Shown: one piece after another, positions 6,414 through 36,624 of the stretch
Position numbering within the stretch: the stretch's first letter is position 1
Layout: every line of letters starts with the position of its first letter
Source: a virus
Lineage: Duplodnaviria > Heunggongvirae > Uroviricota > Caudoviricetes
Strand: one strand, 5' to 3'
Virus record (IMG/VR): IMGVR_UViG_3300029743_000281
DNA length: 64,000 nt
Notes under the pieces: model-generated
The model's input: the letters and a program-made list of their open reading frames with translations, nothing else
Databases searched by the model: none
What the model was told of the DNA's origin: nothing
Translations under genes and position numbers: made by a program

Positions 6414-7914
6414 TTGCTGCTACTCCATTCTCCTTGGCACGGAGGTTCTTTGCCGTCTGCATGGCAGCATTACGCTGTGCCTCCCGCGTATTCACTGACT
6501 TCTTATCAGCCCGCACCACGCTCACTGGCTTGTTCTCGCTCCGCTGCGCACGGTCCAGCGAGTTCCGATAAAGCTCTGCCACATGGGTCGGTTCCTCAAC
6601 CTTGGATGCATTCAAAGCAACCTCGCTCTCCAGACCACATTTCCAGAACACCCGCATGGTGTCCTGTTTAAATTCAATGTGCCCCACCAAGTCATCCAGC
6701 CAGTAATACTGGACGGTGTCCAGTTTCGGGCTCTCTGCCTTGATTTCCAGCATCCTCTGCATAGCTACCGTCCGCTTCTTTTCCTTGATTTCAAGGGTGT
6801 TGTAGGCTTCCAGCAGGGCAGCATCCACAAGATACCCTTTGACCGCATACCCACGGCAGCCGTCCACATCAAAGCAGCCAAGGATGCGCTTGTGGCTGTT
6901 CACTTTCATGACCCTCGGAATCATCTTCTTCCCACACAGCGGGCAGACAATGTTTGTATCGTAGTAGGGATACCGGCTGTACTCCCCATGCGGAGATTTC
7001 AGTTTCATAATGCGCTGTACCTGCTGGTAGGTATGGCGGTCGATAATAGGAACATGGTGGTTCCTGACGTTGTAGACCGGAATCACAGTCGAGTCGTTCC
7101 GGACACTCCTATGGGAAATATGGTCAACACTGACCCATTTCTGAAGCCGCATATCACCAATGTACTTCTCGTTCTCAAGGAGATACTTAAGGGCGGTCTT
7201 GTTCCACGTCTGCTTACCCCTTGCGGAAGGAGCCTGTATAAAGGTCAGCTCATCCAGAATGTCCGTCATGGGGATGCCGTACTGGTACATTTTGAAAATC
7301 ATCCGCACAATGGCAGCTTCGTCCGGTTCAATGACAATTTCACCGTCCTTGGTCTTCCGATAGCCATAGGTCTTGGTCCAGCGCGACTCACCACTTTCAA
7401 ACCGCTTGCGAATGCCCCATTTCAGGTTTTCGGAGATGGAACGGCTTTCCTCCTGTGCAAAAGCCGCCATGACCGTCAGAATCAGTTCGGACACCGACGT
7501 TGCCGTATCCAGTCCTTCCTTTTCAAAGTAAAGCTGGACACCGATGCTCTGAAGATGGCGCACATAGGACAGACATTCGACCGTGTTGCGGGCAAATCGA
7601 GAGATACTTTTTGCCATGATATAATCGACCTTGCCTGCCTCGCAATCCTCCATCATCCGCAAGAACTCTTTACGCTTTTTCACGCTGGTTCCGCTGATGC
7701 CCTCATCGGCGTAGACATCCACCAACATCCAGCCAGGGTGCTGGGCAATCTTAGCGCGGAAGGCTTTCATCTGCTCCTCCAAGCTGTGGAGCTGAATCTC
7801 CTGGTCCGTGCTGACACGGGCATAGACTGCAACGCGGACTGTTTTCAAGGTTCTAAGTGCCTGAAAGCCAAGCTTCTGTACCCCAGTGTCTACCTTTTCT
7901 ACTGTAATTTCCAT
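6403..7914 (-). CDS. Large serine recombinase 3
   Basis: 'VAVYARVSTDQE...SISRFARN'; 503 aa. Confidence 0.9.
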   Translation of the reverse strand: MEITVEKVDTGVQKLGFQALRTLKTVRVAVYARVSTDQEIQLHSLEEQMKAFRAKIAQHPGWMLVDVYADEGISGTSVKKRKEFLRMMEDCEAGKVDYIMAKSISRFARNTVECLSYVRHLQSIGVQLYFEKEGLDTATSVSELILTVMAAFAQEESRSISENLKWGIRKRFESGESRWTKTYGYRKTKDGEIVIEPDEAAIVRMIFKMYQYGIPMTDILDELTFIQAPSARGKQTWNKTALKYLLENEKYIGDMRLQKWVSVDHISHRSVRNDSTVIPVYNVRNHHVPIIDRHTYQQVQRIMKLKSPHGEYSRYPYYDTNIVCPLCGKKMIPRVMKVNSHKRILGCFDVDGCRGYAVKGYLVDAALLEAYNTLEIKEKKRTVAMQRMLEIKAESPKLDTVQYYWLDDLVGHIEFKQDTMRVFWKCGLESEVALNASKVEEPTHVAELYRNSLDRAQRSENKPVSVVRADKKSVNTREAQRNAAMQTAKNLRAKENGVAANDY

Positions 7915-7926
7915 GTACTTTTCTCC

Positions 7927-8868
7927 TTATTGCCATTTGGGGTCGTTCAGGACCTTCTGCTGTTCATCATTGTATTTTTTTCGTCCGGAGTGGAGCAAGC
8001 CCATCTGAATCATGGTCTGCACATGCTCGAACTGTTCTCTGCTGACAATGCCTTCATGATGGTCCTCCAGATGAACTTGGGCGCGTTCTCCCCTGTTCCG
8101 CTTGCTGTATCGGTGGCCGTTCTTGCCGTAGGCCGTGTAGTAGCAATCCGTCCAGTAATCCCCCATGTATGCGACATTTTTCAGCATATTGGGTAGCCGA
8201 TTTCGATTCTGAGACCATGACACACCGGTATTTTCCTCATCCTCCATCTTATCCAAGCAAGCTCGGATATCTGCGTAGCAGACTCCTTTTGCCGCTTGGT
8301 CAAAGGCATAGCGGACACGGCGGGCCTCGGATTCTTCAATTCTCCATTCACCCTGCTTGTTGACCCTGCGAAAGCCGTAGGTCACACGGCCGGTCGGAAT
8401 GCCCTGGTCATGGAGATAGGCGATGCCTGCTCGAACATTCTCACCGATGCTCTTGGACTCCTCCTCGGCAATGATGGCAAGGATGTGGAAGAACAGCTCG
8501 CTCTGACCATCCATCGTGTTAATGCCCTCTTTTTCAAAAATGACCGGGATGCCCAGCTCTTTCAGCTGACGCACCACGGTCACACAGTCAAGCATATTTC
8601 GGGAGAAACGGGAGATGGACTTGGTGTAGATGACATCGATCTTGCCATCCACACAGTCCTGAATCATCTGTCGGAATTCCGGCCGACGCTGCGTACTGCG
8701 TCCGCTGCCCTCATCCGCATAAACCTTTACGAGTTCTTCATCGGGGTTATTGGAGAGCAGCTCCGTGAAGTAGCTTTTCTGAATCTCATAGGAGCCTTCC
8801 TGACACTCCATACCGGTGCTGACTCGGCAATAAGCCGCCGCCCTTTTGCGTTTCACTACGATTTCCAT
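7927..8868 (-). CDS. Large serine recombinase 4 (start trimmed to MEIVVKRKRAAAYCRVST)
   Basis: 'AAYCRVSTGMECQE...SISRFSRN'. RBS GGAGGATGACGCA before the internal ATG. Upstream TTGCTA-17-CATTAT promoter-like at ~8905-8935. Confidence 0.8.
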   Translation of the reverse strand: MEIVVKRKRAAAYCRVSTGMECQEGSYEIQKSYFTELLSNNPDEELVKVYADEGSGRSTQRRPEFRQMIQDCVDGKIDVIYTKSISRFSRNMLDCVTVVRQLKELGIPVIFEKEGINTMDGQSELFFHILAIIAEEESKSIGENVRAGIAYLHDQGIPTGRVTYGFRRVNKQGEWRIEESEARRVRYAFDQAAKGVCYADIRACLDKMEDEENTGVSWSQNRNRLPNMLKNVAYMGDYWTDCYYTAYGKNGHRYSKRNRGERAQVHLEDHHEGIVSREQFEHVQTMIQMGLLHSGRKKYNDEQQKVLNDPKWQ

Positions 8869-8984
8869 TGCGTCATCCTCCTTTGGGGTAGTCGTATAAT
8901 GCCGCATGTACGGCTGAATAGCAAGTTCTGTCGCCCAGATAAATCGGCATATTACCGACAAACTATCTGCCTGACAGAACGGCT

Positions 8985-9025
8985 GAAATGCAGCAGATGC
9001 GACAAATGTAAAGGGCTTCCCGGTC
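8985..9025 (-). terminator. Intrinsic terminator after the lysis operon
   Basis: Perfect 9-bp stem GGGCTTCCC-N9-GGGAAGCCC followed by TTTACATTTGT on the minus strand. Confidence 0.5.
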
Positions 9026-9110
9026 AAATTGGGAAGCCCAGAGTGCGACGTTTGAATCAGCCCGGTCTATGTGCCAGAGAGTGCTTTTGTGTCATCGCAA
9101 CGAGGTGATA

Positions 9111-23665: not shown

Positions 23666-26600
23666 TTACTTATAGACCGAATCGTCCTGGTCGATCATCT
23701 CATTGATCTTGTCAGCCACGATCTGTGCCAGTTCGTTATCGTTCCGGGCGTTGTAGCCGTTCACTGTGATGTGAACGCCACCCAGATTCGTGTTCTTTGT
23801 TGTTCCGCCGCCGGCCAGAGCAGCCTGCGGAAAATTCCAACCGCTTGTGTTCAGCCGGGGAATATTGATCTCCGGCAGGCTAAAGGAGCAGATTCCCGCC
23901 ATCCCCTGCTGAACCTTAGAGGCCATAGACCGGATCTGCTTCAGCAGACCGCCCTCGCTGGCCTTGATGCCGCCAGTCAGCAGCTTCATGAAGTCAGGCA
24001 TATAGGTGTCGGCATCTGCCAGCGGTCCTTCGTCCGGCACCGAGAAGTGCAGGAAACTGCGGATGCCGTTTGCCACGCTCTTGGCGGCATTACCGACCCA
24101 CGACACGCCTTTCTTGATGCCTCCAGCGATACCACTGACCACATCCTTGCCCCAGTTTACCGCCGAGGAAGCCACGTTCTTGACGCCGCTCCAGATAGAG
24201 GATGCCACGTTGCCGATGGCAGACGCCGCATTGGAGATGCCATTCTTAATGGCAGTCACACCATTGGAGAACACAGAAGTGACCTTATTCCAGATGTTGG
24301 TCACACCCTCCCGGAAACCATCACAGTTTTTCCAGAGAGCAGTCAGTCCCAGACCGATGCCGCCGACTGCTGCCACTGCGATACCCGCAGGACCGGCCAG
24401 ACCTGCAAGTGCTGTACCCGCCGAGGCAAGCACACCGCCAGCCGAAGAAGCGATACCAGCCAATGCACTGCCTGCACCGGCAGCAAGACCAGACACCGTT
24501 GTGCCAACAGAACCGAACAGCCCCGCAATCGCAGAACCAGCCGAGCCAGCGATACCGCCCAGCGTGGAGCCCACACTGGAGAGCAGCCCGGACAGGCTGC
24601 TGCCAACACCGCCGAGTTTTGAGAGGACACCGGTCGCCACACTGCCGAGGTTCGACAAGATGCCGGTCCCGCTGCTGCCAAGGCCGCCCAGCTTCGAGAT
24701 GACACCGGTGATCCCTTGTCCCAGACCACCCATCTTAGAGGTCAGCCCGGAGATCAGGTTTCCGAAGTTCGAGACGATCTGTCCGCCATCGGCGTTGCCG
24801 ATCTTCGACAGGAAACCACCCATCTTTGTCAGCAGACCACCGCCGCCATCCGTTCCCAGTGCATTGCCGAGGTTCGTGAGCGTCTCGCCCAAGCTGCCGA
24901 AGGTACTCTTCATAGAGCCGAGCTTATCCACGATGCCGGTGACCGTGCTGACAGTATCGCCCACCTTGCTGAAGCCCTCGCCCAGTCCCTTAAGGAAATC
25001 CGAGTTGAAGGTATCACCGAGGCTGTGGATTGCATTGCCCAGAGAACTGGTCTGGTCGCTCAAGTCTCCGATGGAGGTCTTCATGTCGGAGAACCCCTGC
25101 TTCACCTCATCGCTCATGCTGCTGACCGATGTTTTGGTGATCTTTTCAAGGTCACTCCAGACAGACTTAAACTCGCTGGACATGCCTTCCAGACCGTTCA
25201 TAAGCCCAGTTCGGATGTCGGATGCCAGTCCGCTTGCAGCAGACCGTACTCTGTTGGTGCTGCCAGTGATCGTTGAAGCAAATCCGCTCACCACAGACCT
25301 CACCTTATCGCTCATGTCTCCCACGGGCGTGTTCAGGTTGGTTTTCATGGAGCCGGACAGGGTCTTGACTGCCTTGACGACCTTGCCTTGATTCTTCTTG
25401 ATACCACTCGCCAGCAGCTTCATGAAGTCCGGCATATACTCATCCGCATCGGACAAAGGACCGGTATCAGGCACAGAGAAATGCAGCAGACTTCTGACCT
25501 TACTTGCCACATTCTCTGCGGCCCGGACGACCGATCCTGCCGCCGCACGAACACCGGCCGCCATCTGGGAGCAGATGTCACTGCCCCAGCTGTATGCCGA
25601 AGAAGCAATGGAGCTGAGAGAGTTGAAGCTGTTCTTGATGCCGGACACACCGGAAGAAACCGTGGAGCGCAGATTGGACATAGCGCCGGACACCGCCGAC
25701 TGCACACTGGAAAAGGTGGAGCTGGTCGTGGATTTCACACCGTTCCAGCCCGTTGATACCGTGGACTTCACAGAGTTCACAGCCGAAGATGCCGTGCTGC
25801 GGATGGTATTCCAGCTAGAACTGAGTACCGACTGGATGCTCGACCAACTGCTGCTGGTCAGGCTGCGGAGATTGTTCCAGCCAGCCGTGACTGCGCTCTT
25901 GACCGCATTGACTGAGCTGGTGGTTGCACTCTTGATGCTGTTCCAGCTCGTATTCAGCACGGTCTGGATGGAATTCCAACTGGACGTTGTCAAACTGCGC
26001 AGATTCGTCCACCCGGTCGTGACGGAAGTTTTCACTGCGTTGACCGAGGCTGTCGTTGCGCTCTTGATGCTGTTCCAGCTTGTGTTCAGTGCCGTCTGGA
26101 TGGAACTCCAACTGGATGTTGTCAACGTGCGCAGGTTAGTCCAGCCATTGGTGACAACCGTTTTGACTGCACTGACCGCAGTTGTGCTTGCGGATTTGAT
26201 GGAATTCCAGCTTGCCGTCAGGCTCGACTGGATGCCGGACCAGCTGGATATTGTAAGGGTGTGGAGTTGCGTCCAGCCATTGGTGACAGCGGTTTTCACG
26301 CTGTTCAGGCTGGTTGTCACGGAAGTCGTGATGCCGGTCCATGCAGTTGCGAGGTTGGTCTTGACCGCATTCCATGCCGTAGCGGTGTCCGATGCAATAC
26401 CGGACCATGCCGCAGACATGGATGCCTTGATGCTGTCGATCTGACTCGTCACAGACTGTGCCATGCCAGTGCAGGCAGTTGATACGGAATCAGACACACC
26501 CGACCATGCGGTCTGGGCTTCTGTCTCCACGCCGGACCATGCGTTAGAGGTATCCGTTTTCATCTGGGTGGTAGAGTCGCTGGTCTTGCCGGTGATGGCA

Positions 26601-29491
26601 TCCCAGATACCACCAAAAAATCCGGAGATTCCTTCCCATGCGCTGGAAATGCCAGACTTGATACCCTCCCACGCAGTGCTTGCCGTAGACTGGATGCCTT
26701 CCCATGCCCCGGACAGTCCGGTCGCCACCGTATCGACCGCAGATGTCACACCCGACTGGATACTATCCCAAGCTGTAGAAATCGCACCCTTGATGCCATC
26801 CCATGCAGACGAGGCAGTGGACTGGATTCCCGTCCATGCAGTCGAAAGCCCAAAGCCGAGCGTCTCAACCGCGCCGGACACAAAGGAGGAGATTCCCTCC
26901 CATGCGCCGGAGATGACACCCGAAATACCCTCCCACACAGTCGATGCCGCCGACTTGATATTTTCCCAAGCTGTAGACCAGTCGCCGGAGATGACGCTCA
27001 TGACAGTCGAAATGACCGCCGAGATCGCATCCATAACCCCGCTGACCACGCCGGAGATTGCCTCCCAGACCGTAGAGAACACAGTCTGCAAGCCGGTCAG
27101 GATACCGCCGAGGAAATCGGAGATTCCACTGAAGGTGGACTGTGCGTTCTCGTCCATCTCCCCGGTTTTCCCCGTGAAGAACGAGACGATGCCGTTCCAG
27201 ATGCCCTCGAAGAAATCCTTGATCCCCGTCCAGACCCCGGTACAGAAATCCGAGATCCCGGTCCAGATGTTGGACGCGGTGGTCTGGATGCCTGTCAGGA
27301 TGCCGGAGAAGAAATCGCTGATTCCCGTCCAGATTCCTTCAAAGAATCCTTGGATGCTCTCCCAGACCGAGTTCCAGTCCGTACCGAACCAGCCGAGGAA
27401 CACATCTGCTACAGCCTTCAAGGTGTCCAGCACCGTGGAGAAGATGGACTTGATGCCGTCCCAAATTCCGGAGAAGATACCCTTGACGGCCGCCCATGCG
27501 CCGCTCCAGTTGCCCTGGAAGAGATTGGAGAACACATCGAACAGACCAATCAGCGTGTCGAGGACTGTTCCCAGTACCGTGGATACAACCTGAAAGGCAC
27601 CCTCAAACACAGGAGCCAAAACCTGACAGAAGCCGTCCCAGACAGCTTTCAGCACCTCTACGATATCCTTGAAATCAAAGCCGAGGGCATTGAGCCGCTG
27701 GGTCAGCTGGTCGCAGAAGCCGCGCACTTTTTCGACGATGCCATTCCAGATGTTAGTAATAGCTGTACGGAACTCTTCATTGGTATTCCAGAGGTGCATG
27801 AATGCAGCCACCAGCGTACCGATCACGGCAACCACTGCCATGACGGGAGCCGAAATGCCGCCGAGAGCTGCGCCCAGCTTCCCGAACAGTCCGCTTGCGC
27901 TGCCCACACGGGTGGAGAGCAGCCGGATGCCCTTAGCCAGCGAACTGAAGCCCTTTAATGCTGTGCCCGCTGTCGATATGGTTTTACCCAGCACGATAAG
28001 CAGCGGTCCAATGGCCGCAGCCAGAGCCGCCACCTTGAGGATGGTCTCTCTGGTGCTGTCGTCCATACTGTTGAGCTCGTCCACGAATGCCTGCACCGCC
28101 GACACGATTTTGCGGATGGTGGGCATCAAGAGGTCGCCAAAGGAAATAGCCAGCTCCTCCAACTGAGATTTCAGAATGGTAAGCTGGCCGTTGAGGTTAT
28201 CCTGCATGGTCTCTGCCATGCTCTCCGCAGAACCGTCACAGTTCTCAATGGCACCACGGAGCTTGTCGATGTCACCTTCGCCGGCATTCATCAGGGCAAG
28301 GAAACCGGACATAGCGTTCTTGCCGACCAGCGATTCGGCATTGGCTGCCTTTTCAGATTCGGTCAGACCGGAGAAAGCCACACGGCAGTCCGCAAGGATA
28401 TCGTTCAGGCTTCTCATACTGCCGTCCGCATTGCTGGTGGCAATCGTGACCTCTCCGATGTTCTTGCCTGCAAAGGTCACTTCACCGGCAAGGTTGTTCA
28501 TGATGGAACGCAGCGAAGTACCTGCCTGTGATGCCTTGATACCGCTGTTTGCCATGAGGCCGATAGCTTCCGCCGTATCCTCTGCACTGAAACCCAGCGC
28601 ACCGGCGATAGGCGCACAGTACTTGAAGGTCTCGCCCATCATGCTGACGTTGGTGTTTGCATTGGACGATGCCGCAGCAAGAATGTCCGCAAAGTGTCCA
28701 GAATCCGCGGCCGACAAACCAAAGGCAGTCAGCGCATCCGTGACGATATCAGAGGTAGTCGCCAAGTCCTCACCGGATGCAGCAGCAAGGTTCATGATAC
28801 CTTCGATGCCATCCAGCATATCCCCGGTCTTCCAGCCGGCCATCGCCATATATTCCATAGCGGAGGCGGCTTCGGAGGCAGAGAACTTGGTCTTGGCACC
28901 CATCTCGCGGGCTTTGGCACGGAGCTGGTCAAAGTCATCCCCTGTTGCACCGGAAATAGCAGAGACCTTGCTCATTTCCTGGTCGAAGTCTGCTGCGGTC
29001 TTTACCGCCGCTGTGCCTAAGCCAGTAACTGCCGCCGTAACCGGCAGGAACTTCTTACCCACACTTTCGACCTGAGAGCCAACCGTCTGGAGCTTTTCTC
29101 CCACCGCATCGATCTTGGCAAGGGTCACATTGGTGACCGCCGCCTGTTCCTGCAGGGATTTAAGGTTCTGCTCCGTCTCCACGATCTCACGCTGGAGTGC
29201 ATCGTACTGGTCCTGCGTGATCTTGCCATCTGCAAGCTGCTGATTGGCCTGCTCTGCCGCCGTCTTTAAGGTGGTGAGCTTCTCCTTGGTGGCTTCGATA
29301 GCCTCCTTCAGCATCCTCTGCTTCTGGGTGACAGCCTCGGTGTTGGAAGGGTCCAGTTTCAGGAGCTTGTTGACATCCTTCAGCTCAGACTGCGTTTTTT
29401 TGATGGTTTTGTTGACGCTTTCCAGTGCCTTGGATAATTTTGTAGTGTCGCCGCCGATCTCAACGGTAATGCCTGCGATTCTGGATGCCAT
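23666..29491 (-). CDS. Tail tape measure protein (~1940 aa)
   Basis: N-terminal coiled coil. Long arrays of W/T-rich ~35-aa repeats (TAWTGITTSVTTSLNSVKT...). Duplicated 'LHFSVPDxGPLxDADxYMPDFMKLL' motif. RBS GGAGGAGGTGG. Confidence 0.9.
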   Translation of the reverse strand: MASRIAGITVEIGGDTTKLSKALESVNKTIKKTQSELKDVNKLLKLDPSNTEAVTQKQRMLKEAIEATKEKLTTLKTAAEQANQQLADGKITQDQYDALQREIVETEQNLKSLQEQAAVTNVTLAKIDAVGEKLQTVGSQVESVGKKFLPVTAAVTGLGTAAVKTAADFDQEMSKVSAISGATGDDFDQLRAKAREMGAKTKFSASEAASAMEYMAMAGWKTGDMLDGIEGIMNLAAASGEDLATTSDIVTDALTAFGLSAADSGHFADILAAASSNANTNVSMMGETFKYCAPIAGALGFSAEDTAEAIGLMANSGIKASQAGTSLRSIMNNLAGEVTFAGKNIGEVTIATSNADGSMRSLNDILADCRVAFSGLTESEKAANAESLVGKNAMSGFLALMNAGEGDIDKLRGAIENCDGSAESMAETMQDNLNGQLTILKSQLEELAISFGDLLMPTIRKIVSAVQAFVDELNSMDDSTRETILKVAALAAAIGPLLIVLGKTISTAGTALKGFSSLAKGIRLLSTRVGSASGLFGKLGAALGGISAPVMAVVAVIGTLVAAFMHLWNTNEEFRTAITNIWNGIVEKVRGFCDQLTQRLNALGFDFKDIVEVLKAVWDGFCQVLAPVFEGAFQVVSTVLGTVLDTLIGLFDVFSNLFQGNWSGAWAAVKGIFSGIWDGIKSIFSTVLDTLKAVADVFLGWFGTDWNSVWESIQGFFEGIWTGISDFFSGILTGIQTTASNIWTGISDFCTGVWTGIKDFFEGIWNGIVSFFTGKTGEMDENAQSTFSGISDFLGGILTGLQTVFSTVWEAISGVVSGVMDAISAVISTVMSVISGDWSTAWENIKSAASTVWEGISGVISGAWEGISSFVSGAVETLGFGLSTAWTGIQSTASSAWDGIKGAISTAWDSIQSGVTSAVDTVATGLSGAWEGIQSTASTAWEGIKSGISSAWEGISGFFGGIWDAITGKTSDSTTQMKTDTSNAWSGVETEAQTAWSGVSDSVSTACTGMAQSVTSQIDSIKASMSAAWSGIASDTATAWNAVKTNLATAWTGITTSVTTSLNSVKTAVTNGWTQLHTLTISSWSGIQSSLTASWNSIKSASTTAVSAVKTVVTNGWTNLRTLTTSSWSSIQTALNTSWNSIKSATTASVNAVKTSVTTGWTNLRSLTTSSWNSIQTVLNTSWNSIKSATTSSVNAVKSAVTAGWNNLRSLTSSSWSSIQSVLSSSWNTIRSTASSAVNSVKSTVSTGWNGVKSTTSSTFSSVQSAVSGAMSNLRSTVSSGVSGIKNSFNSLSSIASSAYSWGSDICSQMAAGVRAAAGSVVRAAENVASKVRSLLHFSVPDTGPLSDADEYMPDFMKLLASGIKKNQGKVVKAVKTLSGSMKTNLNTPVGDMSDKVRSVVSGFASTITGSTNRVRSAASGLASDIRTGLMNGLEGMSSEFKSVWSDLEKITKTSVSSMSDEVKQGFSDMKTSIGDLSDQTSSLGNAIHSLGDTFNSDFLKGLGEGFSKVGDTVSTVTGIVDKLGSMKSTFGSLGETLTNLGNALGTDGGGGLLTKMGGFLSKIGNADGGQIVSNFGNLISGLTSKMGGLGQGITGVISKLGGLGSSGTGILSNLGSVATGVLSKLGGVGSSLSGLLSSVGSTLGGIAGSAGSAIAGLFGSVGTTVSGLAAGAGSALAGIASSAGGVLASAGTALAGLAGPAGIAVAAVGGIGLGLTALWKNCDGFREGVTNIWNKVTSVFSNGVTAIKNGISNAASAIGNVASSIWSGVKNVASSAVNWGKDVVSGIAGGIKKGVSWVGNAAKSVANGIRSFLHFSVPDEGPLADADTYMPDFMKLLTGGIKASEGGLLKQIRSMASKVQQGMAGICSFSLPEINIPRLNTSGWNFPQAALAGGGTTKNTNLGGVHITVNGYNARNDNELAQIVADKINEMIDQDDSVYK

Positions 29492-29539
29492 GCGGATAAC
29501 CACCTCCTCCGGGGCATAAGTAAAGACCCATCCGCACAA

Positions 29540-29729
29540 GGCGAATAGGCCGAAAGTTCTAAACTTGAAATTGCTCGTTAGTTTTTAGCATTGAAATTTC
29601 AGAAAACTCGGTTTTTCTGAAATTTCTTAATTTTTGCAATTTCAAATTATCTTGATTTTCTGAAATTTCTATGGTAAAATCTCTACAGTAATTTCATTTT
29701 CCTGCTTTTCAGGAAAGAAAGGAGCATCT
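29540..29729 (+). promoter_or_regulatory. AT-rich promoter/operator region for fic with three copies of the 8-bp palindrome GAAATTTC
   Basis: TTGATT - 17 bp (containing GAAATTTC) - TAAAAT with TG extension, giving an operator between -35 and -10. Further GAAATTTC copies at ~29590 and ~29615. Confidence 0.55.
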
Positions 29730-30875
29730 ATGAGCAATCGAGCTGGTACACTTGTCAGCAATCTGTCTGGCGATATGGCATACCAATCTTTTCGTCCTGC
29801 ACCCCTTCCTCCTTACCCTCCCATCGAGCTTAGTGGAGAATTAGTCACCAAACTTATTGATGCCAACAAAAAGCTGGCTACGCTAGATGGTCTTTCTTCA
29901 CGCATTCCGAATATGGATCTTTTTGTGTCCATGTATGTTCGGAAAGAAGCCCTTCTCTCCTCGCAAATTGAAGGTACACAATGCACACTGGATGATATTC
30001 TGAATCCTCTAATGGAGGAGAACACGAATCTGAACGTTTCCGATGTTGTCAATTACATTAAGGCAACAGAATTCGCACTGAACCGTCTCCACACCCTCCC
30101 ACTGTGCAATAGACTCATCAAAGAAACTCACGCTGTTCTCATGGAAGGGGTACGGGGGCAGGAAAAAAGCCCTGGTGAATTCCGCTATTCTCAAAACTGG
30201 ATTGGCGGTCAGGGCAGCACCATACGAAACGCTCGTTATATTCCTCCAAATCCTGATGATATGCAAACCGCCATGTCTGATTTGGAAAAATACATGAATA
30301 GCGATGACGCTCTCGATCCATTGATTCAGGCCGCTTTGATTCACTATCAGTTCGAGACAACTCACCCATTTCTGGATGGTAACGGTCGTGTTGGACGACT
30401 GCTGATCACGCTATTCTTAATGGAAAAAGGGATCTTATCTCGTCCGGCACTGTATATCTCCTACTTTTTGAAAATGAACCGCGTTGAGTATTACGACAGA
30501 ATGACTCAGGTTCGCAAAACCGGCGACTATGAACAATGGGTCATCTTTTTCCTGCAAGCACTCTCCGATTCTGCCAGCGATGCTATTCAAACCATCGACA
30601 AGCTCACAGTGCTTCACAATAAAAGCATTGCTCAGTTCGATGACCTCTCAAAACGTCAAAAGACCAATGTCCTCAAGGTGTTTAGCTATATCGAGACTAA
30701 TCCGATTATTGACATCCAGAAAACAGCGACTGCTGTTGACCTTTCCTACAACACAGTCTCTAAGATTGTCTTGCTCCTTGTTGAAAAGGGCATTCTTCAG
30801 CAGACGGACAAATCCGGAAAGGCAAAGATTTTCTCTTATCCTGAATACCTCGATATTCTTCGCAAAGACACCTGA
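29730..30875 (+). CDS. fic: Fic/Doc family protein (AMPylation-type motif HPFxDGNGR)
   Basis: 'HPFLDGNGRVGRLLITLFLM' canonical Fic motif; 381 aa; local GC visibly lower than the flanks; opposite strand to the tail genes. Confidence 0.9.
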   Translation: MSNRAGTLVSNLSGDMAYQSFRPAPLPPYPPIELSGELVTKLIDANKKLATLDGLSSRIPNMDLFVSMYVRKEALLSSQIEGTQCTLDDILNPLMEENTNLNVSDVVNYIKATEFALNRLHTLPLCNRLIKETHAVLMEGVRGQEKSPGEFRYSQNWIGGQGSTIRNARYIPPNPDDMQTAMSDLEKYMNSDDALDPLIQAALIHYQFETTHPFLDGNGRVGRLLITLFLMEKGILSRPALYISYFLKMNRVEYYDRMTQVRKTGDYEQWVIFFLQALSDSASDAIQTIDKLTVLHNKSIAQFDDLSKRQKTNVLKVFSYIETNPIIDIQKTATAVDLSYNTVSKIVLLLVEKGILQQTDKSGKAKIFSYPEYLDILRKDT

Positions 30876-30884
30876 TATCACTTT

Positions 30885-30925
30885 CCCGCCCAGCACACGC
30901 TGGACGGGATTTTTCTTTATCCTCA
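30885..30925 (+). terminator. Intrinsic terminator after fic
   Basis: CCCGCCCAGC-acac-GCTGGACGGG then TTTTTCTTTAT. Confidence 0.6.
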
Positions 30926-30972
30926 CAAGCTTTCATGCTAATTTCGTAATCAATATAAGCACGAAAGCTTGG

Positions 30973-31514
30973 TTAGAACCGGTCAAAGTCAGCCTGCGAT
31001 GCCAGCTCCTGATACGGATACTCATCGTTCTGCCGCTCTGTGAACATGTCATTGACCAACCCGATGGTCAGCAAGTCGAGGTCGGCGATGCTGATACCGA
31101 GCTGCACACAGCGCAGCATGAAGAGCGGGGTGGTCATTACCCGCTCACTTTTGCGAGGTTTTTTCTTGCCTCTACCTCCGTCTGGACATTCAGACCCCAC
31201 AGTTCGATCAGCTGAGGCAGAATCTGGTAGATAGAGAAGGTATTGAAGTTTTCCAGCCACTCATCCGGGGTGTCCGGCACCTGGTCCGGATGGGCGTGCT
31301 TCGCCATAATATAGGCGATATTCTCGAACATCTCCAGACTAAACAGGTCAAGGCTGGAGCTTTCCTCATCGTTATCCCCCACGCTCTTTTCCAGAGAACG
31401 CAGGTCTTTGTAGATATCCCGGCCGAACTTAATGCGATACAGCCTCGGCACGGCTGCGCTGGCGCGGAAATCAACCTGCTGTCCATCGATCTCGATTTTC
31501 TTCGTAATAGCCAT
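30973..31514 (-). CDS. Tail assembly chaperone G-T fusion product made by programmed -1 frameshift
   Basis: The G frame ends at 31137; the overlapping -1 frame stays open to 30973. A slippery heptamer lies 20 nt before the G stop. Confidence 0.5.
31137..31514 (-). CDS. Tail assembly chaperone (gpG-like)
   Basis: 125 aa, acidic, between the major tail protein region and the TMP. Confidence 0.65.
   Translation of the reverse strand: MAITKKIEIDGQQVDFRASAAVPRLYRIKFGRDIYKDLRSLEKSVGDNDEESSSLDLFSLEMFENIAYIMAKHAHPDQVPDTPDEWLENFNTFSIYQILPQLIELWGLNVQTEVEARKNLAKVSG
31158..31164 (-). other. -1 ribosomal frameshift slippery site A_AAA_AAC (plus strand GTTTTTT)
   Basis: Codons AGA|AAA|AAC in the G frame; the shifted frame reads AAA AAA CCT. 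Confidence 0.55.
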
Positions 31515-31580
31515 AAGTCAAATCCTCCATTTCATGTAGAAAGGGCAGAGCCTCCGCCCTGCCCTCAGTTCGTGTCGTGC
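31515..31580 (-). repeat. ~50-bp intergenic element (hairpin GGGCAG..CTGCCC plus CTACATGAAAtGGAG), copy 1
   Basis: Near-identical copy at 32423..32470; the two copies bracket the SPFH gene. Confidence 0.6.
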
Positions 31581-32414
31581 TTACTCTGCCGGGTCGATAC
31601 TGACCAGTGCATTGCTGCCGCTGACGGTGGGCAGCTTGCCATCCCATTTCTGGATCTTCTGGTACTCGATCAGGGTATCAGACAGGCTTTCTGCAATCTT
31701 GCGGTTTGCCTCAGCCTGAGCATCTGCGGCAATGGAGGTCTTCTGTGCCTCCGCCTCGGCATTGGTGATTGCCACTTGCTTGTCGGCTTCTGCCTTTGCA
31801 ATGGCGGCCTCATTCTCGATTTTCTGCTTGTCAGCGTTCTGCTGGGCAATGGACTTCTGCTGGATGGCAGTGTTGTATGCCTCTTCAAAATCCATGTTGT
31901 TGATGACCACCTTATTGATGAACACAGCACCCTCGCCATACTTCTGGTTCAGGGACTCTGCCAGCTTCTGCTGTGCCAGCGGCTCGATCTTGGTGCGGTT
32001 GGTGACCTCATTGGGGCCAAGCTCGGCCATGGCAGACTTGATGGCAGATGCCACCAACTCGTCACCAACCAGATTCTTGGTGTCGGATACATTGGCATAC
32101 AGCCATGCACTCCTTTCGGGAAGCACCTGATAGGTCACGATCACATCTGCGGCATACACAGGAGTCTTGTCGGAGGCTTCGCCCCAGATCTGTGCCTCGA
32201 TGTGCTTGTCCTGCTGCTTGTTGGACACGGTATGGATGCTCTGGACAAACGGAATGGTGAAGTTGAGCTTGCCACTCTGGATGGTGGCCTCCTGAATCTG
32301 GCCGAAGCTGGTCTTCACGCCCGTGTAGCTGGTTGGGACGATGGTCACCGACTGGAACAGCAGGAAGGCCACAAAGATGACAGTAAACAGAGAAAATACA
32401 CGACGACTCTTCAT
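31581..32414 (-). CDS. SPFH/band-7 (stomatin/prohibitin/HflK-C-like) membrane protein
   Basis: N-terminal TM 'VFSLFTVIFVAFLLF', then an SPFH core, then a C-terminal coiled coil 'AEADKQVAITNAEAEAQK'. Confidence 0.75.
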   Translation of the reverse strand: MKSRRVFSLFTVIFVAFLLFQSVTIVPTSYTGVKTSFGQIQEATIQSGKLNFTIPFVQSIHTVSNKQQDKHIEAQIWGEASDKTPVYAADVIVTYQVLPERSAWLYANVSDTKNLVGDELVASAIKSAMAELGPNEVTNRTKIEPLAQQKLAESLNQKYGEGAVFINKVVINNMDFEEAYNTAIQQKSIAQQNADKQKIENEAAIAKAEADKQVAITNAEAEAQKTSIAADAQAEANRKIAESLSDTLIEYQKIQKWDGKLPTVSGSNALVSIDPAE

Positions 32415-32422
32415 AATTCATA

Positions 32423-32470
32423 AACTCCTTTTCATGTAGTGGCAGAGCCGAAGCCCTGCCTCGTTTTCAT
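32423..32470 (-). repeat. ~50-bp intergenic element, copy 2
   Basis: GGCAGGGCTTCGGCTCTGCC hairpin plus ACTACATGAAAAGGAG. Confidence 0.6.
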
Positions 32471-33078
32471 CAGCCCTGAGGATCAGACTCTTCAGTCACC
32501 ACACTGGATGCCTCAGACTGCGGCTCGTAGACCTTCTCGTACCACTTGTTGTAGACATCATCGCTGGTATTGGTGCTGGTCTTGGCCTTGACATAACCGT
32601 TTGCCAGCGGCGTTGCCTGCAATGTCAGGGTGTCGGTCTTGACCTCCTTGCTGTCCTCGTTGGTATCACCTTCGATGGACGGACGGCTTGCCACACAGTT
32701 GTACATAACATGGCGGATATGCCGCTGGTCGCCATCGAACTCGAACAGGAATGCGAAGTGCTCCAGCTCGGCATTGGCGTTTTCCGCCAGAACGCCGTTG
32801 CCATCCAGTTCCTCGTGCATAATGTCCGTGAGGAAGGACTCCGGAATCAGGGCGATTTCCAGATCACCCTCATAGCCGGAGTTGTTATTCACGACATAGT
32901 AGGCGATATTGTCCGCATAGAACGGCTCAATATCACCATTGGCATCCAGGGACAGACTGACCGCACCGGGGATGCGTACCGGGGTATCGTAGGTAACGCC
33001 GCCGTCCTCGTCAAAGGTTGCCTTGGCGTAATGGCAGTTTTTCAGGCCGTACTTGACCTTGTTGCTTTTCTTACCCAT
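32470..33078 (-). CDS. Major tail protein (phi13/TP901-1-like family)
   Basis: 'MGKKSNKVKYGLKNCHYA...' characteristic N-terminus; 202 aa. Confidence 0.8.
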   Translation of the reverse strand: MGKKSNKVKYGLKNCHYAKATFDEDGGVTYDTPVRIPGAVSLSLDANGDIEPFYADNIAYYVVNNNSGYEGDLEIALIPESFLTDIMHEELDGNGVLAENANAELEHFAFLFEFDGDQRHIRHVMYNCVASRPSIEGDTNEDSKEVKTDTLTLQATPLANGYVKAKTSTNTSDDVYNKWYEKVYEPQSEASSVVTEESDPQG

Positions 33079-33115
33079 TGCTTTCTCCTCTCGTGAAAAA
33101 AGTCCTGCGGCTGAC

Positions 33116-33433
33116 TCAGACGGTCAGCTCATACAGGACTTCATACATCTTTTCCGTCTCAATCCAAACCTCGCTCTTTTCATAGAAAAGCTCGTGGGCG
33201 GTCAGGACTTCTTCGATTGCTGCCTCCGTATCCGGATCTTTGTAATCGGTGTACACCTCAATGTCCAGCCGATTGAAGTGGTGGTACACGATGCCGTCCG
33301 CACTAAAATTTGCGGCTTTCGGATACAGAAAACAGATGAATGGCGGATCAGGGCTTTCCCCTTCTGCAAAATGGTCATACGCATAGGGCAGCCCCATTTC
33401 TTCCACCATCGCTTTGACTTCTGCGTGGGTCAT
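33116..33433 (-). CDS. Hypothetical tail-module protein
   Basis: 105-aa ORF in the tail-completion position. Confidence 0.45.
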   Translation of the reverse strand: MTHAEVKAMVEEMGLPYAYDHFAEGESPDPPFICFLYPKAANFSADGIVYHHFNRLDIEVYTDYKDPDTEAAIEEVLTAHELFYEKSEVWIETEKMYEVLYELTV

Positions 33434-33442
33434 GGCATCCTC

Positions 33443-33823
33443 CTACTTCAGTGCTTTCTCGATGAGGCTTTGGAGCAGCTCGACCCCCTCCTGCTCGGCA
33501 GGAGCAATGTGCGGTCTTGCCGCCACACGCCCACCGCCGCGCTTGGCGTGGCCCTTTTCCAAAAGATGCGCCAGCTGGTATCGGTCTTTGGAATGGACGA
33601 CCATCTGAAGGCTCTGACTGGATTCCTCCTGCTTGGTCGCCACCCAGCTCGACTTATACCGACCGGTCCGGGATGGCGCGCCGGCCTCGATTTCCTCCTT
33701 GACCGTCTTTGCTGATTTCCGAACCGCTCGTTTGACCTCGGAGGATGCCAGCTTCGCATATTCCTGCAAGCCCTCATTGACGGCCGCCGCAAGCCCGTCC
33801 ACGCTGACGGTTTTACTGCTCAT
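33443..33823 (-). CDS. HK97 gp10-like tail-component/neck protein
   Basis: 'SSKTVSVDGLAAAVNEGLQEYA...' resembles the HK97 gp10 family. Confidence 0.6.
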   Translation of the reverse strand: MSSKTVSVDGLAAAVNEGLQEYAKLASSEVKRAVRKSAKTVKEEIEAGAPSRTGRYKSSWVATKQEESSQSLQMVVHSKDRYQLAHLLEKGHAKRGGGRVAARPHIAPAEQEGVELLQSLIEKALK

Positions 33824-34152
33824 CTCTGCCTCCGTTCCAGCCTGCAATGCAGCTTTGTGGTTTTCTTGTTGTAGTTCATGGGGTCAACTGACGTGATGTC
33901 ATAAAGCTCACCACGAAACAGTACCCGGAACCCGGTAGAAGTCAGCTTATTGACCTCGCTGCACCAACGTACCGTGAACACCACGCTTTTCTGTTCGGCC
34001 GTGACTTCACCTTCATCCTCCTGCGCCTCAAAGGTCGAAGCGTAGGCGAAGCAGGTGTAATAATCCACCCATGCGTTCCGATGATTGCCGACCTTATCGG
34101 TCATGTGCTTACTTTGCTGGATCGTGATCCTCTCATTCAGCTTATCGATCAT
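33820..34152 (-). CDS. Head-tail adaptor/head closure protein (SPP1 gp16-like)
   Basis: 110 aa with 'ITIQ...VDYYTCFAY...FRVLFRGELYDITSV'. Confidence 0.65.
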   Translation of the reverse strand: MIDKLNERITIQQSKHMTDKVGNHRNAWVDYYTCFAYASTFEAQEDEGEVTAEQKSVVFTVRWCSEVNKLTSTGFRVLFRGELYDITSVDPMNYNKKTTKLHCRLERRQR

Positions 34153-34490
34153 CAGAACACCCCCTCCCTCACAGCAAACAGAATCGAACGGAGCGTCAGC
34201 ATCAACTGCTTATGGTCCGCTTCGTCCCGGTGTTCGTACAAATAGCCCAGCGCATACAGAATTGCCACACGGCAAGTGCTGCGGAGGGCTTCCAGCTCCC
34301 TCGTCGGTGTGACCCCGTTCTCGGCATCCCGGTCAGCGGCATTGACTGCCTCCCACTGGTCGTCCGTGAGCCGGCCCACATCCTTACACATCTGCTCGGC
34401 CGAGGAAAGCATAATGCCGATCAGGGCATCTTCATCCCCGCTGTCCACGCGCAGATAGGTCTTCGCTTCAAAAAGCGGGATCAGTGCCAT
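34152..34490 (-). CDS. gp6-like head-tail connector protein
   Basis: 112 aa; 'AKTYLRVDSGDEDALIGIMLSSAEQMCKD' resembles the gp6-like family. Confidence 0.65.
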   Translation of the reverse strand: MALIPLFEAKTYLRVDSGDEDALIGIMLSSAEQMCKDVGRLTDDQWEAVNAADRDAENGVTPTRELEALRSTCRVAILYALGYLYEHRDEADHKQLMLTLRSILFAVREGVF

Positions 34491-34512
34491 GATCGGTCAT
34501 CCCCCTCTCTTA

Positions 34513-35718
34513 TCAGCCGCCGGCAGCCATCTGAAGGAGCTGCACGGACTCGGGCAGGATCAGCTTGCCATCGACACGCTGGGTGGTCAGGAAGCCGACC
34601 TGATCCGTGCGGGCATACAGCTCGTTCAGGCGACGGAAGGTGCGGTTCTGGCGGTCAGCCACCCAGTAGTAGCTGTAGTCACCAAAGGCCATGACCTTGT
34701 TACCGCCCTTGATCTCCGGCATAAAGGCGGAGGTCTTCAGGGGACGGTTCAGCAGAGTATCGGGCTTGCCGATCTCCAGACCCGGCTTCCAGATATAGTT
34801 GCCGTTGTTGTCCTTGATGGTCATCAGCTGCAGCACCAGTGCCTCGTTGCAGAGGAACTGCGCCTTCTTGCGGTAAGGAGCCTTCAGTGCGTAGTACAGC
34901 TTGAAAATCTCATCAAAGGTGACAGCATCCTGCTTGGCAGCCTTGACACCGACCTTTGCGCCGCCGGTCTCAGCCAGCAGACCCAGAGGCTTACCAACAC
35001 CGTCACCGGTGATGAAGGCGCGCTCCTCCGCATTACCCATACGCACACCGAAACGGCGGGCAATATAGGTGGCGAGGTCAAAGGCGGAATCGTTCAGCAG
35101 CTCGTTGGAAATCTTGATCATGGTGCCCAGCTTGTAGGCGGACAGCATAGTCTGGCCGAAGGTCGCATCGCTTTCGGGGATCTCCTCGCCCTCATCGATC
35201 CAGCTTGCCTCGCCGGTATCCTCTGCGATGGGGATCTTGCGGGTTCCGGAGCTGGTACGGATGACAGTCGCCATGCCGCGGAAGATGTTGTTCTCCTCCA
35301 GTGCCTCCACCAGCTTCTTCTCGAACTCATCAGGAACGGTAAAGCCGCCCTCGGTGTCCTCGCCCACGGACAGAGCGTTGCGAACCTCACCGTAATGACC
35401 ACGGTTGCGGATCATGTTCCAGAAGTTCTCGGCGTACTCGGCAGTAGCAGTCGGCTTCACATCCTTCTTGCTGCCGTTCTTGGGATCGGCATGGACGGGG
35501 TTGGAAGTGGGCGCAGACAGCTGTGCCTCGATCTGTGCCTGCTGTTCCAGCCGCTCGATCTCAGCACCCAGGTCCTTGACCTCCTGTGCCATCTTGTTGT
35601 ACTGCTCCACAGCCTCGGCCTTGACCAGACCGTTATCGCCGCGGTTCTTTTCCAGGAAATCCTTGGTCTGCTCCCAGAGGGTATTGCGCTTGGTGCGCAG
35701 TTCCAGAATCTTACTCAT
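34513..35718 (-). CDS. Major capsid protein, HK97 fold
   Basis: RBS GGAGGTACAACACT then ATG (MSKILELR). ~400 aa with an N-terminal coiled-coil delta domain. Confidence 0.85.
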   Translation of the reverse strand: MSKILELRTKRNTLWEQTKDFLEKNRGDNGLVKAEAVEQYNKMAQEVKDLGAEIERLEQQAQIEAQLSAPTSNPVHADPKNGSKKDVKPTATAEYAENFWNMIRNRGHYGEVRNALSVGEDTEGGFTVPDEFEKKLVEALEENNIFRGMATVIRTSSGTRKIPIAEDTGEASWIDEGEEIPESDATFGQTMLSAYKLGTMIKISNELLNDSAFDLATYIARRFGVRMGNAEERAFITGDGVGKPLGLLAETGGAKVGVKAAKQDAVTFDEIFKLYYALKAPYRKKAQFLCNEALVLQLMTIKDNNGNYIWKPGLEIGKPDTLLNRPLKTSAFMPEIKGGNKVMAFGDYSYYWVADRQNRTFRRLNELYARTDQVGFLTTQRVDGKLILPESVQLLQMAAGG

Positions 35719-35772
35719 AGTGTTGTACCTCCATGAATTTCGTGTTTTCGGCATGAAAAAAGCCGGGGCGCA

Positions 35773-36624
35773 TTATTTCATGCACTCCAGCTGTTTCATC
35801 AGGACGTTATAGGAGTAATCCCCTTCCTCCGTCTTACCGTCCATGTCAAGGACAGGACCGGCCTCCGCAGGGGGATCACTGGGCGGCTCCGTTTGAGCCG
35901 CAGGGGTATCAGGCTTGACTCCCAGACGATTCAGGACGATTAGATCCATCTGACGACTGGAGAAAAGGTGCCCTGCCGCATCCTGCTGGAACGGCTTCTT
36001 TTCTTCGCCCTCGCCCGGTTCCTCATCGGGAGTCTCCTCCAGCTTATCGGGGTCCGCCGGGTCACTGTCAGGTTCATCCTCTTTCTTTGAGAAAAGGATC
36101 TCATCCGCAAAGCCCAGCTCCACTGCTTTCTTGGCATTCATCCACGTTTCGTTGGACATGAGGTTTGCAATGCGGGCATGGGTCAGACCGCTTTTGGCTG
36201 CATAAGCGTTGATGATGCTTTCCTTGACCTCATTCAGCACCTCGATGGCTTTCTCCATATCCTTGGTGTTCCCCATCGCAACGGTACTGGGGTCGTGGAT
36301 CATCAGCATAGCAACCGGGCTCATCTGGACGGTATCTCCGGCCATGGCAACAACGGATGCCGCAGATGCAGCAATCGCATCGATCTTGACCGTGATGCTG
36401 CCCTTGTAGTCCTTGAGCATGGTATAGATTTCGGCAGCAGCAAACACATTGCCGCCCGGACTGTTGATCCAGACGGTCACATCACCCTCACCGGCATTTA
36501 GCTCATCCCGGAACATCTGCGGTGTAATTTCATCACCCCAGAAAGATTCCTCGTCGATGGGACCTTCCAGCCGGAGGGTTCTGGTCTCGTCACTGTCCTT
36601 GATCCAGTTCCAGAACTTTTTCAT
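35773..36624 (-). CDS. Prohead protease (ClpP/S14-like)
   Basis: 'VWINSPGGNVFAAAEIYTML...ASAASVVAMAGD' ClpP-like Ser/His region. Confidence 0.8.
   Translation of the reverse strand: MKKFWNWIKDSDETRTLRLEGPIDEESFWGDEITPQMFRDELNAGEGDVTVWINSPGGNVFAAAEIYTMLKDYKGSITVKIDAIAASAASVVAMAGDTVQMSPVAMLMIHDPSTVAMGNTKDMEKAIEVLNEVKESIINAYAAKSGLTHARIANLMSNETWMNAKKAVELGFADEILFSKKEDEPDSDPADPDKLEETPDEEPGEGEEKKPFQQDAAGHLFSSRQMDLIVLNRLGVKPDTPAAQTEPPSDPPAEAGPVLDMDGKTEEGDYSYNVLMKQLECMK

Follow-up and report, generated by a model that had tools for sequence, protein, structure and literature searches.

The described systems closest to the locus reported here are the morons of lambdoid phages, which are accessory genes lying between adjacent late genes (gene 15 of HK97, in the tail region, is an example), and the PeSL elements of T4-type phages, in which repeated regulatory stem-loop cassettes bracket variable genes and mediate their shuffling. 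A further point of reference is the phage SPFH/prohibitin family collected in PHROG 200, which includes phb1 of Streptococcus phage phi3396, members from Faecalibacterium phage FP_Toutatis and from Fusobacterium phages, and MbpS of Kayvirus, all anchored by a single transmembrane (TM) segment or as lipoproteins. We describe here a gene of the same family in a 64,000-nucleotide stretch of Caudoviricetes DNA (IMG/VR record IMGVR_UViG_3300029743_000281; the whole stretch is referred to as the window). The gene encodes an SPFH (Band_7) protein of 277 amino acids and is located between the genes for the major tail (tube) protein and a tail assembly chaperone, where it is flanked by two copies of a hairpin and leader. 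Homologues are present in 111 GenBank phage records, all at less than 60% identity.

Our preferred interpretation, to which we assign a probability of about 0.6, is that the SPFH gene forms an in-line accessory cassette within the late (tail) operon of a temperate siphophage whose hosts are gut Clostridia. The ancestral junction would have consisted of the tube stop codon, one GC-rich UUCG hairpin, a Shine–Dalgarno sequence and the chaperone start codon. In the clade of the window the SPFH gene lies inside that junction, with the hairpin and part of the leader on both sides, and recombination between the copies removes exactly one repeat period plus the SPFH gene.

Two related junctions around the SPFH gene

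The SPFH gene occupies positions 31581–32414 on the minus strand. Its upstream neighbour is the tube gene (32470–33078, minus strand; phrog_88, 7.9e-60; TIGR01603, 5.2e-37; PF06488, 3e-06) and its downstream neighbour is the gene for tail assembly chaperone G (125 amino acids; 31137–31514, minus strand; phrog_709, 2.7e-38), a role assigned from position and frame layout. The interval given in the initial annotation (31515–32470) spans the gene plus both junctions, whereas the coding sequence itself is limited to 31581–32414. The tube–SPFH spacer is 55 nucleotides (nt) long and the SPFH–chaperone spacer is 66 nt long; common to both are a hairpin and the leader that follows it. Hairpin 1 (32441–32460, minus strand; GGCAGGGC-UUCG-GCUCUGCC in the mRNA sense) is found 10 nt past the tube stop codon, and leader copy 1 (32412–32440, minus strand) carries the Shine–Dalgarno sequence and start codon of the SPFH gene (ACTACATGAAAAGGAGTTTATGAATTATG). 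Hairpin 2 (31543–31564, minus strand; GGGCAGGGC-GGAG-GCUCUGCCC in the mRNA sense) is found 16 nt past the SPFH stop codon, and leader copy 2 (31512–31542, minus strand) carries the Shine–Dalgarno sequence and start codon of the chaperone gene (TTTCTACATGAAATGGAGGATTTGACTTATG). Both leader copies were identified by the repeat search and the junction alignment.

The direct repeats described in the initial annotation do align. The repeat search paired 31512–31539 with 32412–32439 (28 nt, 82% identity) and 31544–31563 with 32441–32460 (20 nt, 85% identity), with an offset of 3 nt between the two pairs. Local alignment of the junctions gave 31 identities in 36 positions and one 3-nt gap, with a score of 38, which was reached by none of 5000 shuffles (mean 12.0, s.d. 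2.1, maximum 27). Across the 64-kb window, junction 1 is the best non-self match to junction 2, the hairpin pattern is found at the two junctions only (0.13 occurrences expected) and the exact sequence CTACATGAAAWGGAG is likewise restricted to them. The leader common to both copies is CTACATGAAA(A/T)GGAG. The repeated unit had been put forward as a hairpin plus CTACATGAAAwGGAG; the two copies are homologous, but in the upstream copy CTACATGAAAwGGAG is a minority allele, the upstream leader of most close relatives being CTACATTATTGTATAAGGAG. When the window is compared with L004 and L014 (L numbers denote loci in the comparisons below), the divergent patch is limited to approximately 32370–32480. 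Because the upstream leader is a minority allele and the divergent patch is confined to this short stretch, the extended leader similarity of the window's copies is partly due to a local conversion-like event.

The two copies also vary together within lineages. In the 87% clade both hairpin cores are identical over 18 nt, and in the clade of the window the stems of the two hairpins are identical while their loops differ. In L162 the stem is a different one (GGGGYGGGG-AAA-CCYGCCCC), with both hairpins reading GGGGYGGGGAAACCYGCCCC and both leaders CTACATTTTRGGAGGAAAACGACTATG; its two leaders are identical but for one position up to the start codon. Such co-variation within lineages would be accounted for by repeated duplication or, more simply, by gene conversion between the copies. 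The alignments thus show genuine homology between the two flanking copies, and relatives without the SPFH gene carry this intergenic element only once.

Relatives with and without the gene

Approximately 230 related loci were compared, the relatives being taken from IMG/VR and from species-representative genomes and located through their proteins. A megablast search of 29500–35800 against GenBank phages gave no match. For the occupancy counts the loci were found via the tube protein, and the counts are hence unbiased regarding SPFH. At tube identities of at least 83%, the IMG/VR loci comprise 69 with a full SPFH gene at the site, two with a full gene and an extra 777-nt insert, three with a damaged gene and two from which it is absent; eight of the nine loci from species-representative genomes are occupied. 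Below 68% tube identity, 38 of 39 loci lack the gene. At intermediate identities it is present in L161 (72%) and L162 (68%) and absent from L160 (78%), the more divergent phages with SPFH at the tube–chaperone site being L161, L162, L209 and L212. Two SPFH homologues of 73% and 77% identity that were looked up independently are both at this site. Homologues elsewhere (L210, 70%; MT835486 / L149, 43%) are found in other contexts and are not accompanied by hairpins, and the possibility that the gene arrived with its own hairpins is not supported for this reason.

The nearest annotated phages, with tube proteins 60–67% identical, are the human-gut 'Ca. Heliusvirales' NatCom phages. The hosts named in the genome records of relatives include Faecalibacterium, Lawsonibacter, Blautia and Clostridium fessum, and the host group is the gut Clostridia. 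We note that L153 (Blautia faecis DFI.3.66) and L154 (Faecalibacterium intestinale CLA-AA-H281), which come from isolates of different families, are 99.27% identical across 12,612 nt. This near-identity fits published claims of a broad host range for Heliusvirales/GuFi phages, but contamination or mis-assignment is possible.

The junction without the SPFH gene takes three forms. In the first, which is that of the NatCom phages and of Butyrivibrio prophages, the tube gene and the chaperone gene nearly abut, being separated by 1–13 nt that hold a Shine–Dalgarno sequence only. In the second, seen in most of the 59–63% clade, a spacer of about 55 nt contains a single copy of this same hairpin, GGGCAGGGCTTCGGCTCTGCCC, between the tube stop codon and the chaperone ribosome-binding site. 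As a separate observation, the tube protein of many distant relatives (L164–L180 and L194; 59–63% identical) has 286 amino acids instead of approximately 198, owing to a C-terminal extension of about 88 residues that initially resembled an extra junction gene. The third form is that of L042 and L058, which belong to the 87% clade. Their flanks (2040 nt upstream and 2060 nt downstream) are 100% identical to those of the SPFH-bearing loci L153, L154, L144, L055 and L048, from which they differ only by 889 missing nucleotides, a length equal to the spacing of the two identical 18-nt hairpin cores. The single junction that is left has the order upstream flank, hairpin, downstream leader. This state is a recent precise deletion via recombination across the repeat. 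That L042 and L058 represent an ancestral empty site was considered and rejected, given that their flanks are 100% identical to those of SPFH-bearing prophages and that exactly one 889-nt repeat period is gone; the single-hairpin junction of the distant clade is the better candidate for the ancestral state.

These comparisons bear on several statements of the initial annotation. That a gene at the tube–chaperone position is not the ancestral layout agrees with the adjacency of the tube and chaperone genes in relatives with 60–67% tube identity. The proposed cassette insertion by duplication of an intergenic site is supported in substance by the single hairpin of relatives lacking SPFH, but the insertion is old. 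A single-copy empty site, as anticipated for related phages, is indeed present in the close relatives L042 and L058, but there it is a secondary deletion and not a pre-insertion state. A recent insertion is contradicted: the gene is found at the site in almost all members of the clade, its composition (GC 0.542; third-position GC, GC3, 0.716) equals that of its neighbours (0.544 and 0.709 for the tube gene) and it is under purifying selection, with nonsynonymous-to-synonymous ratios (dN/dS) of approximately 0.04–0.17 against its orthologues, similar to those of the chaperone and terminator genes. Since GC and GC3 match those of the neighbours, dN/dS is low and presence in the clade is near-constant, the SPFH gene is an old, long-standing resident of the lineage under purifying selection.

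Damaged or absent copies amount to approximately 6% of the clade: the gene of L005 is chimeric, that of L037 has a frameshift and that of L070 an internal deletion, and L042 and L058 have lost it. In L005 (5669–6865) the first ~149 SPFH residues continue in the same reading frame into a sequence with a sigma-70 region 4 domain, either in a rearranged prophage or in an assembly chimera. In view of this fraction, which was obtained from metagenomic contigs, the gene is selected for, yet probably dispensable for particle production.

The junction also shows signs of exchange and of further insertion. L019 and the window are 98–100% identical in their flanks and 80–92% identical in a block from approximately 32600 to 31700; the corresponding synonymous divergence (dS) is 0.63 for SPFH, compared with 0.13 for the tube gene and 0.09 for the chaperone gene. 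This pattern suggests that the SPFH gene undergoes mosaic exchange. The breakpoints are near the hairpins, but not exactly on them. In L026, L029 and L152 a gene for a 231-residue protein of homing-endonuclease type (HNH_3 + AP2) directly follows hairpin 2 (5520–6215 in L152). This insert uses the original leader of the chaperone gene; in these loci the chaperone start codon is preceded by a different ribosome-binding site and by no hairpin. Because the HNH–AP2 gene has also been taken up there in some relatives, the tube–chaperone junction is a recurrent landing site.

Hairpins, SPFH protein and possible function

The stem of hairpin 1 is 8 bp long and includes a conserved G-U pair; its loop is UUCG. 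Its calculated fold is −14.2 kcal/mol on the sense strand and −9.4 kcal/mol on the antisense strand, and the junction in which it lies folds at −18.1 kcal/mol (z −2.85). For the extended stem of hairpin 2 the values are −20.9 kcal/mol (sense) and −15.1 kcal/mol (antisense). The sense strand is the more stable in nearly all hairpin variants (a further example being −16.0 versus −7.3 kcal/mol). Among 48 distinct variants 93.5% of cells are paired, compared with 38–55% when the partners are slid, the structure having been derived from the same sequences. Four of the nine stem pairs have changes on both sides, and at one stem position the commonest pair (41 of 48) is G-U, a pairing that the antisense strand cannot form. 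Most loops read UUCG. A search of Rfam 15 over 31000–33200 gave no match to a hairpin or junction and one chance-level miRNA match elsewhere (E 0.58).

We infer that the hairpins would function in the sense-strand RNA, either as leaky terminators or by stabilising 3′ ends. The hairpin after the tube gene, whose product is required in abundance, would set a high expression of the tube relative to a low expression of the chaperone and tape measure, and the SPFH protein would be translated late in infection from transcripts that read through the hairpin, in amounts like those of the downstream gene products. Two other arrangements were considered and rejected. Recoding, with a tube–SPFH fusion made by frameshifting or read-through and the hairpin as stimulator, is rejected for the window by an in-frame TGA two codons before the SPFH ATG. 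A promoter belonging to the SPFH gene itself was not found either: the TATAAA-like AT-rich stretch of other alleles abuts or overlaps the Shine–Dalgarno sequence, and a transcript starting there would lack that sequence.

Several observations weigh against the cassette interpretation and the expression scheme attached to it. The exact 18-mer core GCAGGGCTTCGGCTCTGC is present in at least 58 unrelated IMG/VR contigs without tube or chaperone similarity (L216–L328), nearly always 6–30 nt past the stop codon of an open reading frame (ORF), in longer stems with varying flanks and often with a T-run after it. The core may be read as a generic terminator-type stem-loop, and its recurrence is unsurprising because a 7-bp stem with a tetraloop is low in information and the collection is large. 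The hairpin similarity by itself is consequently weak evidence for duplication, for which the case is made by the similarity of the leaders and by the co-variation specific to each lineage. Within the window neither hairpin has a T-run after it (the strong stem of hairpin 2 is followed only by TTT) and the terminator scan calls neither of them. No sigma-70-type promoter was found at 32415–32469, although the absence of a consensus does not exclude a Clostridia promoter. Finally, the original event may have taken either of two courses: the hairpin may have been duplicated when the gene was inserted, or the gene may have brought a similar hairpin of its own that was later homogenised.

The wide recurrence of the 18-nt core, in different flanks, also led us to reject the idea that the hairpin marks one particular mobile element. 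In three of the unrelated contigs (L256, L273 and L289) there are two copies of the 18-mer, 0.9–2.4 kb apart.

The SPFH identity of the product, proposed in the initial annotation, is well founded. The 277-residue protein matches Pfam PF01145 (Band_7) with 59 bits (cut-off 23.6; E 8.1e-16) over residues 25–211 and profile positions 2–175 of 176, and PHROG 200, annotated as 'lipoprotein', with 129.6 bits (E 3e-37) over residues 6–268. Sequence matches to solved structures in the Protein Data Bank are remote (prohibitin-2, 4.3e-06; HflC, 2e-04; QmcA, 2.9e-03). The only NCBIfam matches are to the HflC equivalog models NF008259 and TIGR01932; these cover partial stretches and score 28.5 bits against a cut-off of 427 and 23.7 bits against a cut-off of 134.4, respectively. 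On these matches we assign the protein to the SPFH superfamily and to PHROG 200, and not as an orthologue of HflC or HflK. The ORF list holds no second SPFH gene or HflK-like partner near the tube–chaperone locus.

As read off the sequence, the N-terminus consists of MKSRR followed by approximately 20 hydrophobic residues. The signal-anchor segment MKSRRVFSLFTVIFVAFLLFQSVTIV has no cysteine and the window's protein thus has no lipobox, while the orthologues P0059, P0064 and P0070 have a lipobox LVSC, and most others have LAVC, LAIC or no cysteine. Because positive residues precede the TM segment (the positive-inside rule), an N-in orientation is predicted, which would place the SPFH domain at the outer face of the cytoplasmic membrane; the LVSC lipobox that replaces the anchor in some orthologues implies the same side. 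A low-confidence model and an Ala/Glu/Gln-rich sequence suggest a long C-terminal helix at residues 176–255. The orthologue columns show strong conservation of the SPFH domain, the Ala/Glu/Gln-rich segment and a C-terminal KWDGKLP motif. The AlphaFold2 model, built from an alignment of 32 sequences that each share at least 69% identity with the query, was of unusably low quality (pLDDT 47.6, pTM 0.22). The protein would be expected to assemble into a ring or cage, as is typical of the superfamily.

With regard to function, we tentatively propose that the SPFH protein may fence off a membrane client late in infection, this client being either an FtsH-type protease or the lysis and secretion machinery. 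The proposal is made because prohibitin and HflK/C share the predicted topology and are the best solved relatives. In this way it would protect the membrane functions of the phage, or set their timing, as the cycle ends; it would not control lysogeny. In MT835486, which carries the closest homologue outside the clade (43%), the SPFH gene comes after two endolysin-like genes, and MbpS of Kayvirus is encoded between lysK and tgl (PMC7150955). Two points count against the proposal: FP_Toutatis, Lelie, Javan576 and phiFN37 carry their SPFH genes in early or replication regions, and, as the structure model is unusable (pLDDT 47.6), ring formation is predicted on family membership alone. A tested function for any phage SPFH protein was not found in the literature searched, and a 2026 paper states explicitly that phage SPFH proteins have none (PMC13239085).

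Superinfection exclusion or progeny protection is a rather unlikely alternative, in which the outer-face protein would block DNA entry by related phages; it might, for instance, sequester the membrane component that the tape measure protein uses. It would act in lysogens or, alternatively, late in infection, where it would keep progeny from being lost to cells already undergoing lysis. The predicted extracytoplasmic membrane location is in keeping with such a role, as are the 'lipoprotein' annotation of phrog_200 and the neighbourhood of the gene, which comprises the chaperone and tape measure genes as well as a second cargo site with the defence gene SoFic. HK97 gp15, an inner-membrane protein encoded by a moron in the same part of the tail operon, reportedly acts in superinfection exclusion, as do the outer-face lipoproteins Ltp and Llp. 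However, the protein matched no family in PADLOC-DB 2.0 at E values up to 0.01, its composition is that of a core gene, unlike that of the SoFic moron, and no promoter of its own was found, so that expression in lysogens, where exclusion pays, is doubtful. A more elaborate reading, which we consider improbable, would have a prohibitin/HflKC-like cage on the outer face of the host membrane capture FtsH, or the membrane component on which DNA entry via the tape measure depends, as a late membrane take-over or exclusion device, the hairpins serving as tunable attenuators and recombination handles. If it were true, a cellular scaffold fold would have been turned into a phage device that can be swapped or dropped in a highly prevalent group of human-gut Firmicutes prophages.

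The initial annotation had suggested an HflK/HflC-like modulator of FtsH that affects the lysis/lysogeny decision or host proteolysis. The best solved relatives, prohibitins and HflC, are partners of FtsH-type proteases with the same N-in, domain-out topology, and HflC models are the only NCBIfam matches, but these matches are fragmentary and far below their cut-offs and the SPFH gene is single, with no HflK-like partner. Moreover, with the gene in the late tail operon and no promoter found, its product would be made after the lysogeny decision, and we consider this role unlikely. That there is no cassette, the gene being an ancestral essential part of the tail module and the hairpins independent terminators of a common type, is very improbable: occupancy of ~95% of the clade, core-like composition, purifying selection and the convergent recurrence of the hairpin core in unrelated phages would fit it, but there is no gene here in relatives of 60–67% tube identity or in canonical siphophages, it is missing from contigs that are 100% identical in all other respects, truncations or frameshifts affect further copies (L037, L070, L005), the similarity runs past the hairpin into the leader with copies that co-vary within lineages, and a membrane protein that is exported cannot form part of a tail assembled in the cytoplasm.

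Neighbouring genes and comparison with known systems

The gene order of the tail module, all on the minus strand, is portal, ClpP-type protease, capsid, connector genes, tail terminator (33116–33433), major tail protein, SPFH, chaperone and tape measure. The chaperone ORF, between the tube and tape measure genes, is 80–100% conserved and syntenic in relatives. Its end is overlapped in the −1 frame by an ORF at 30973–31260 (minus strand; phrog_3033, 2.3e-23), the putative T part of a G/GT frameshift product; from the ORF coordinates the frame offset, (31514 − 31260) mod 3, is 2. Overlapping −1 frame chaperone ORFs upstream of the tape measure gene are the usual G/GT layout. The tape measure gene (23666–29539, minus strand; 1957 amino acids) is taken from the ORF list; its listed start codon is TTG, an ATG 16 codons in being likelier, and the product contains many tandem repeats rich in Ser, Thr and Trp. 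Downstream of the tail module are genes for a holin, an endolysin and three large serine recombinases, on account of which the source DNA is a temperate siphophage or prophage. The three recombinase genes are consecutive (5199–9027, minus strand), encode Resolvase and Recombinase domains and are located 3′ of the lysis genes.

A Fic gene (SoFic; 29730–30875, plus strand) separates the chaperone ORFs from the tape measure gene. Its product matches PADLOC SoFic (5.8e-118) and contains Fic_N and Fic domains. With its foreign composition (GC 0.449, GC3 0.471) and its own promoter-like site (29652–29680), the SoFic gene is a classical moron, indeed a textbook case. Among the relatives it is present only in L001/L081 and L115. 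The gap between the chaperone GT and tape measure genes (29540–30972 in the window) ranges from approximately 0 to 4 kb in the relatives L001–L208 and is a second, more variable cargo hot spot.

PHROG 200 is a large family of phage SPFH proteins with no member of known role, and the locus described here offers one such gene that is fixed and selected in the late operon of very common gut Firmicutes prophages. Its function is experimentally approachable, with natural knock-outs that are otherwise identical and with cultured lysogens (Blautia faecis DFI.3.66 and Faecalibacterium intestinale CLA-AA-H281). The locus is also a worked example of how a short stem-loop can serve both as an expression element and as a substrate for the gain, exchange and precise loss of accessory genes.

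Comparison with cellular SPFH proteins indicates that the window's protein resembles the HflK/HflC and prohibitin cages in having an SPFH domain followed by a long predicted helix and a predicted N-in, domain-out arrangement. This predicted topology matches that of HflK/C and prohibitin and differs from that of stomatin, flotillin and QmcA. Unlike HflK/HflC, the protein is encoded by one gene and not by a hetero-pair, its similarity is remote (E 4e-06 to 2e-04) and it falls below the HflC thresholds. The other phage SPFH genes that we inspected are in early or replication regions or in lysis modules, in contrast to the position of the window's gene between tube and chaperone.

As is the case with PeSL elements, short stem-loop direct repeats flank an accessory ORF that recombination removes or exchanges, and the deletion is seen directly here. 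In contrast to PeSL elements, there are two copies in 64 kb and not a genome-wide family, the repeat contains no promoter and the location is after a late gene and not in an early region. The likeness to morons is in an extra, dispensable-looking membrane-protein gene that is placed, in a late structural operon, between genes adjacent in relatives, with a stem-loop after it. However, the SPFH gene is co-oriented and in line with the operon, no promoter was found for it, its composition is not foreign and it is flanked by a duplicated hairpin and leader and not by a promoter/terminator pair. The architecture is closest to that of a moron, but of the four classical features neither a promoter nor a foreign composition was found, and a clear terminator is doubtful. 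In our view the cassette is a well-documented instance of a known traffic of accessory genes in a structural operon, and not a new kind of system.

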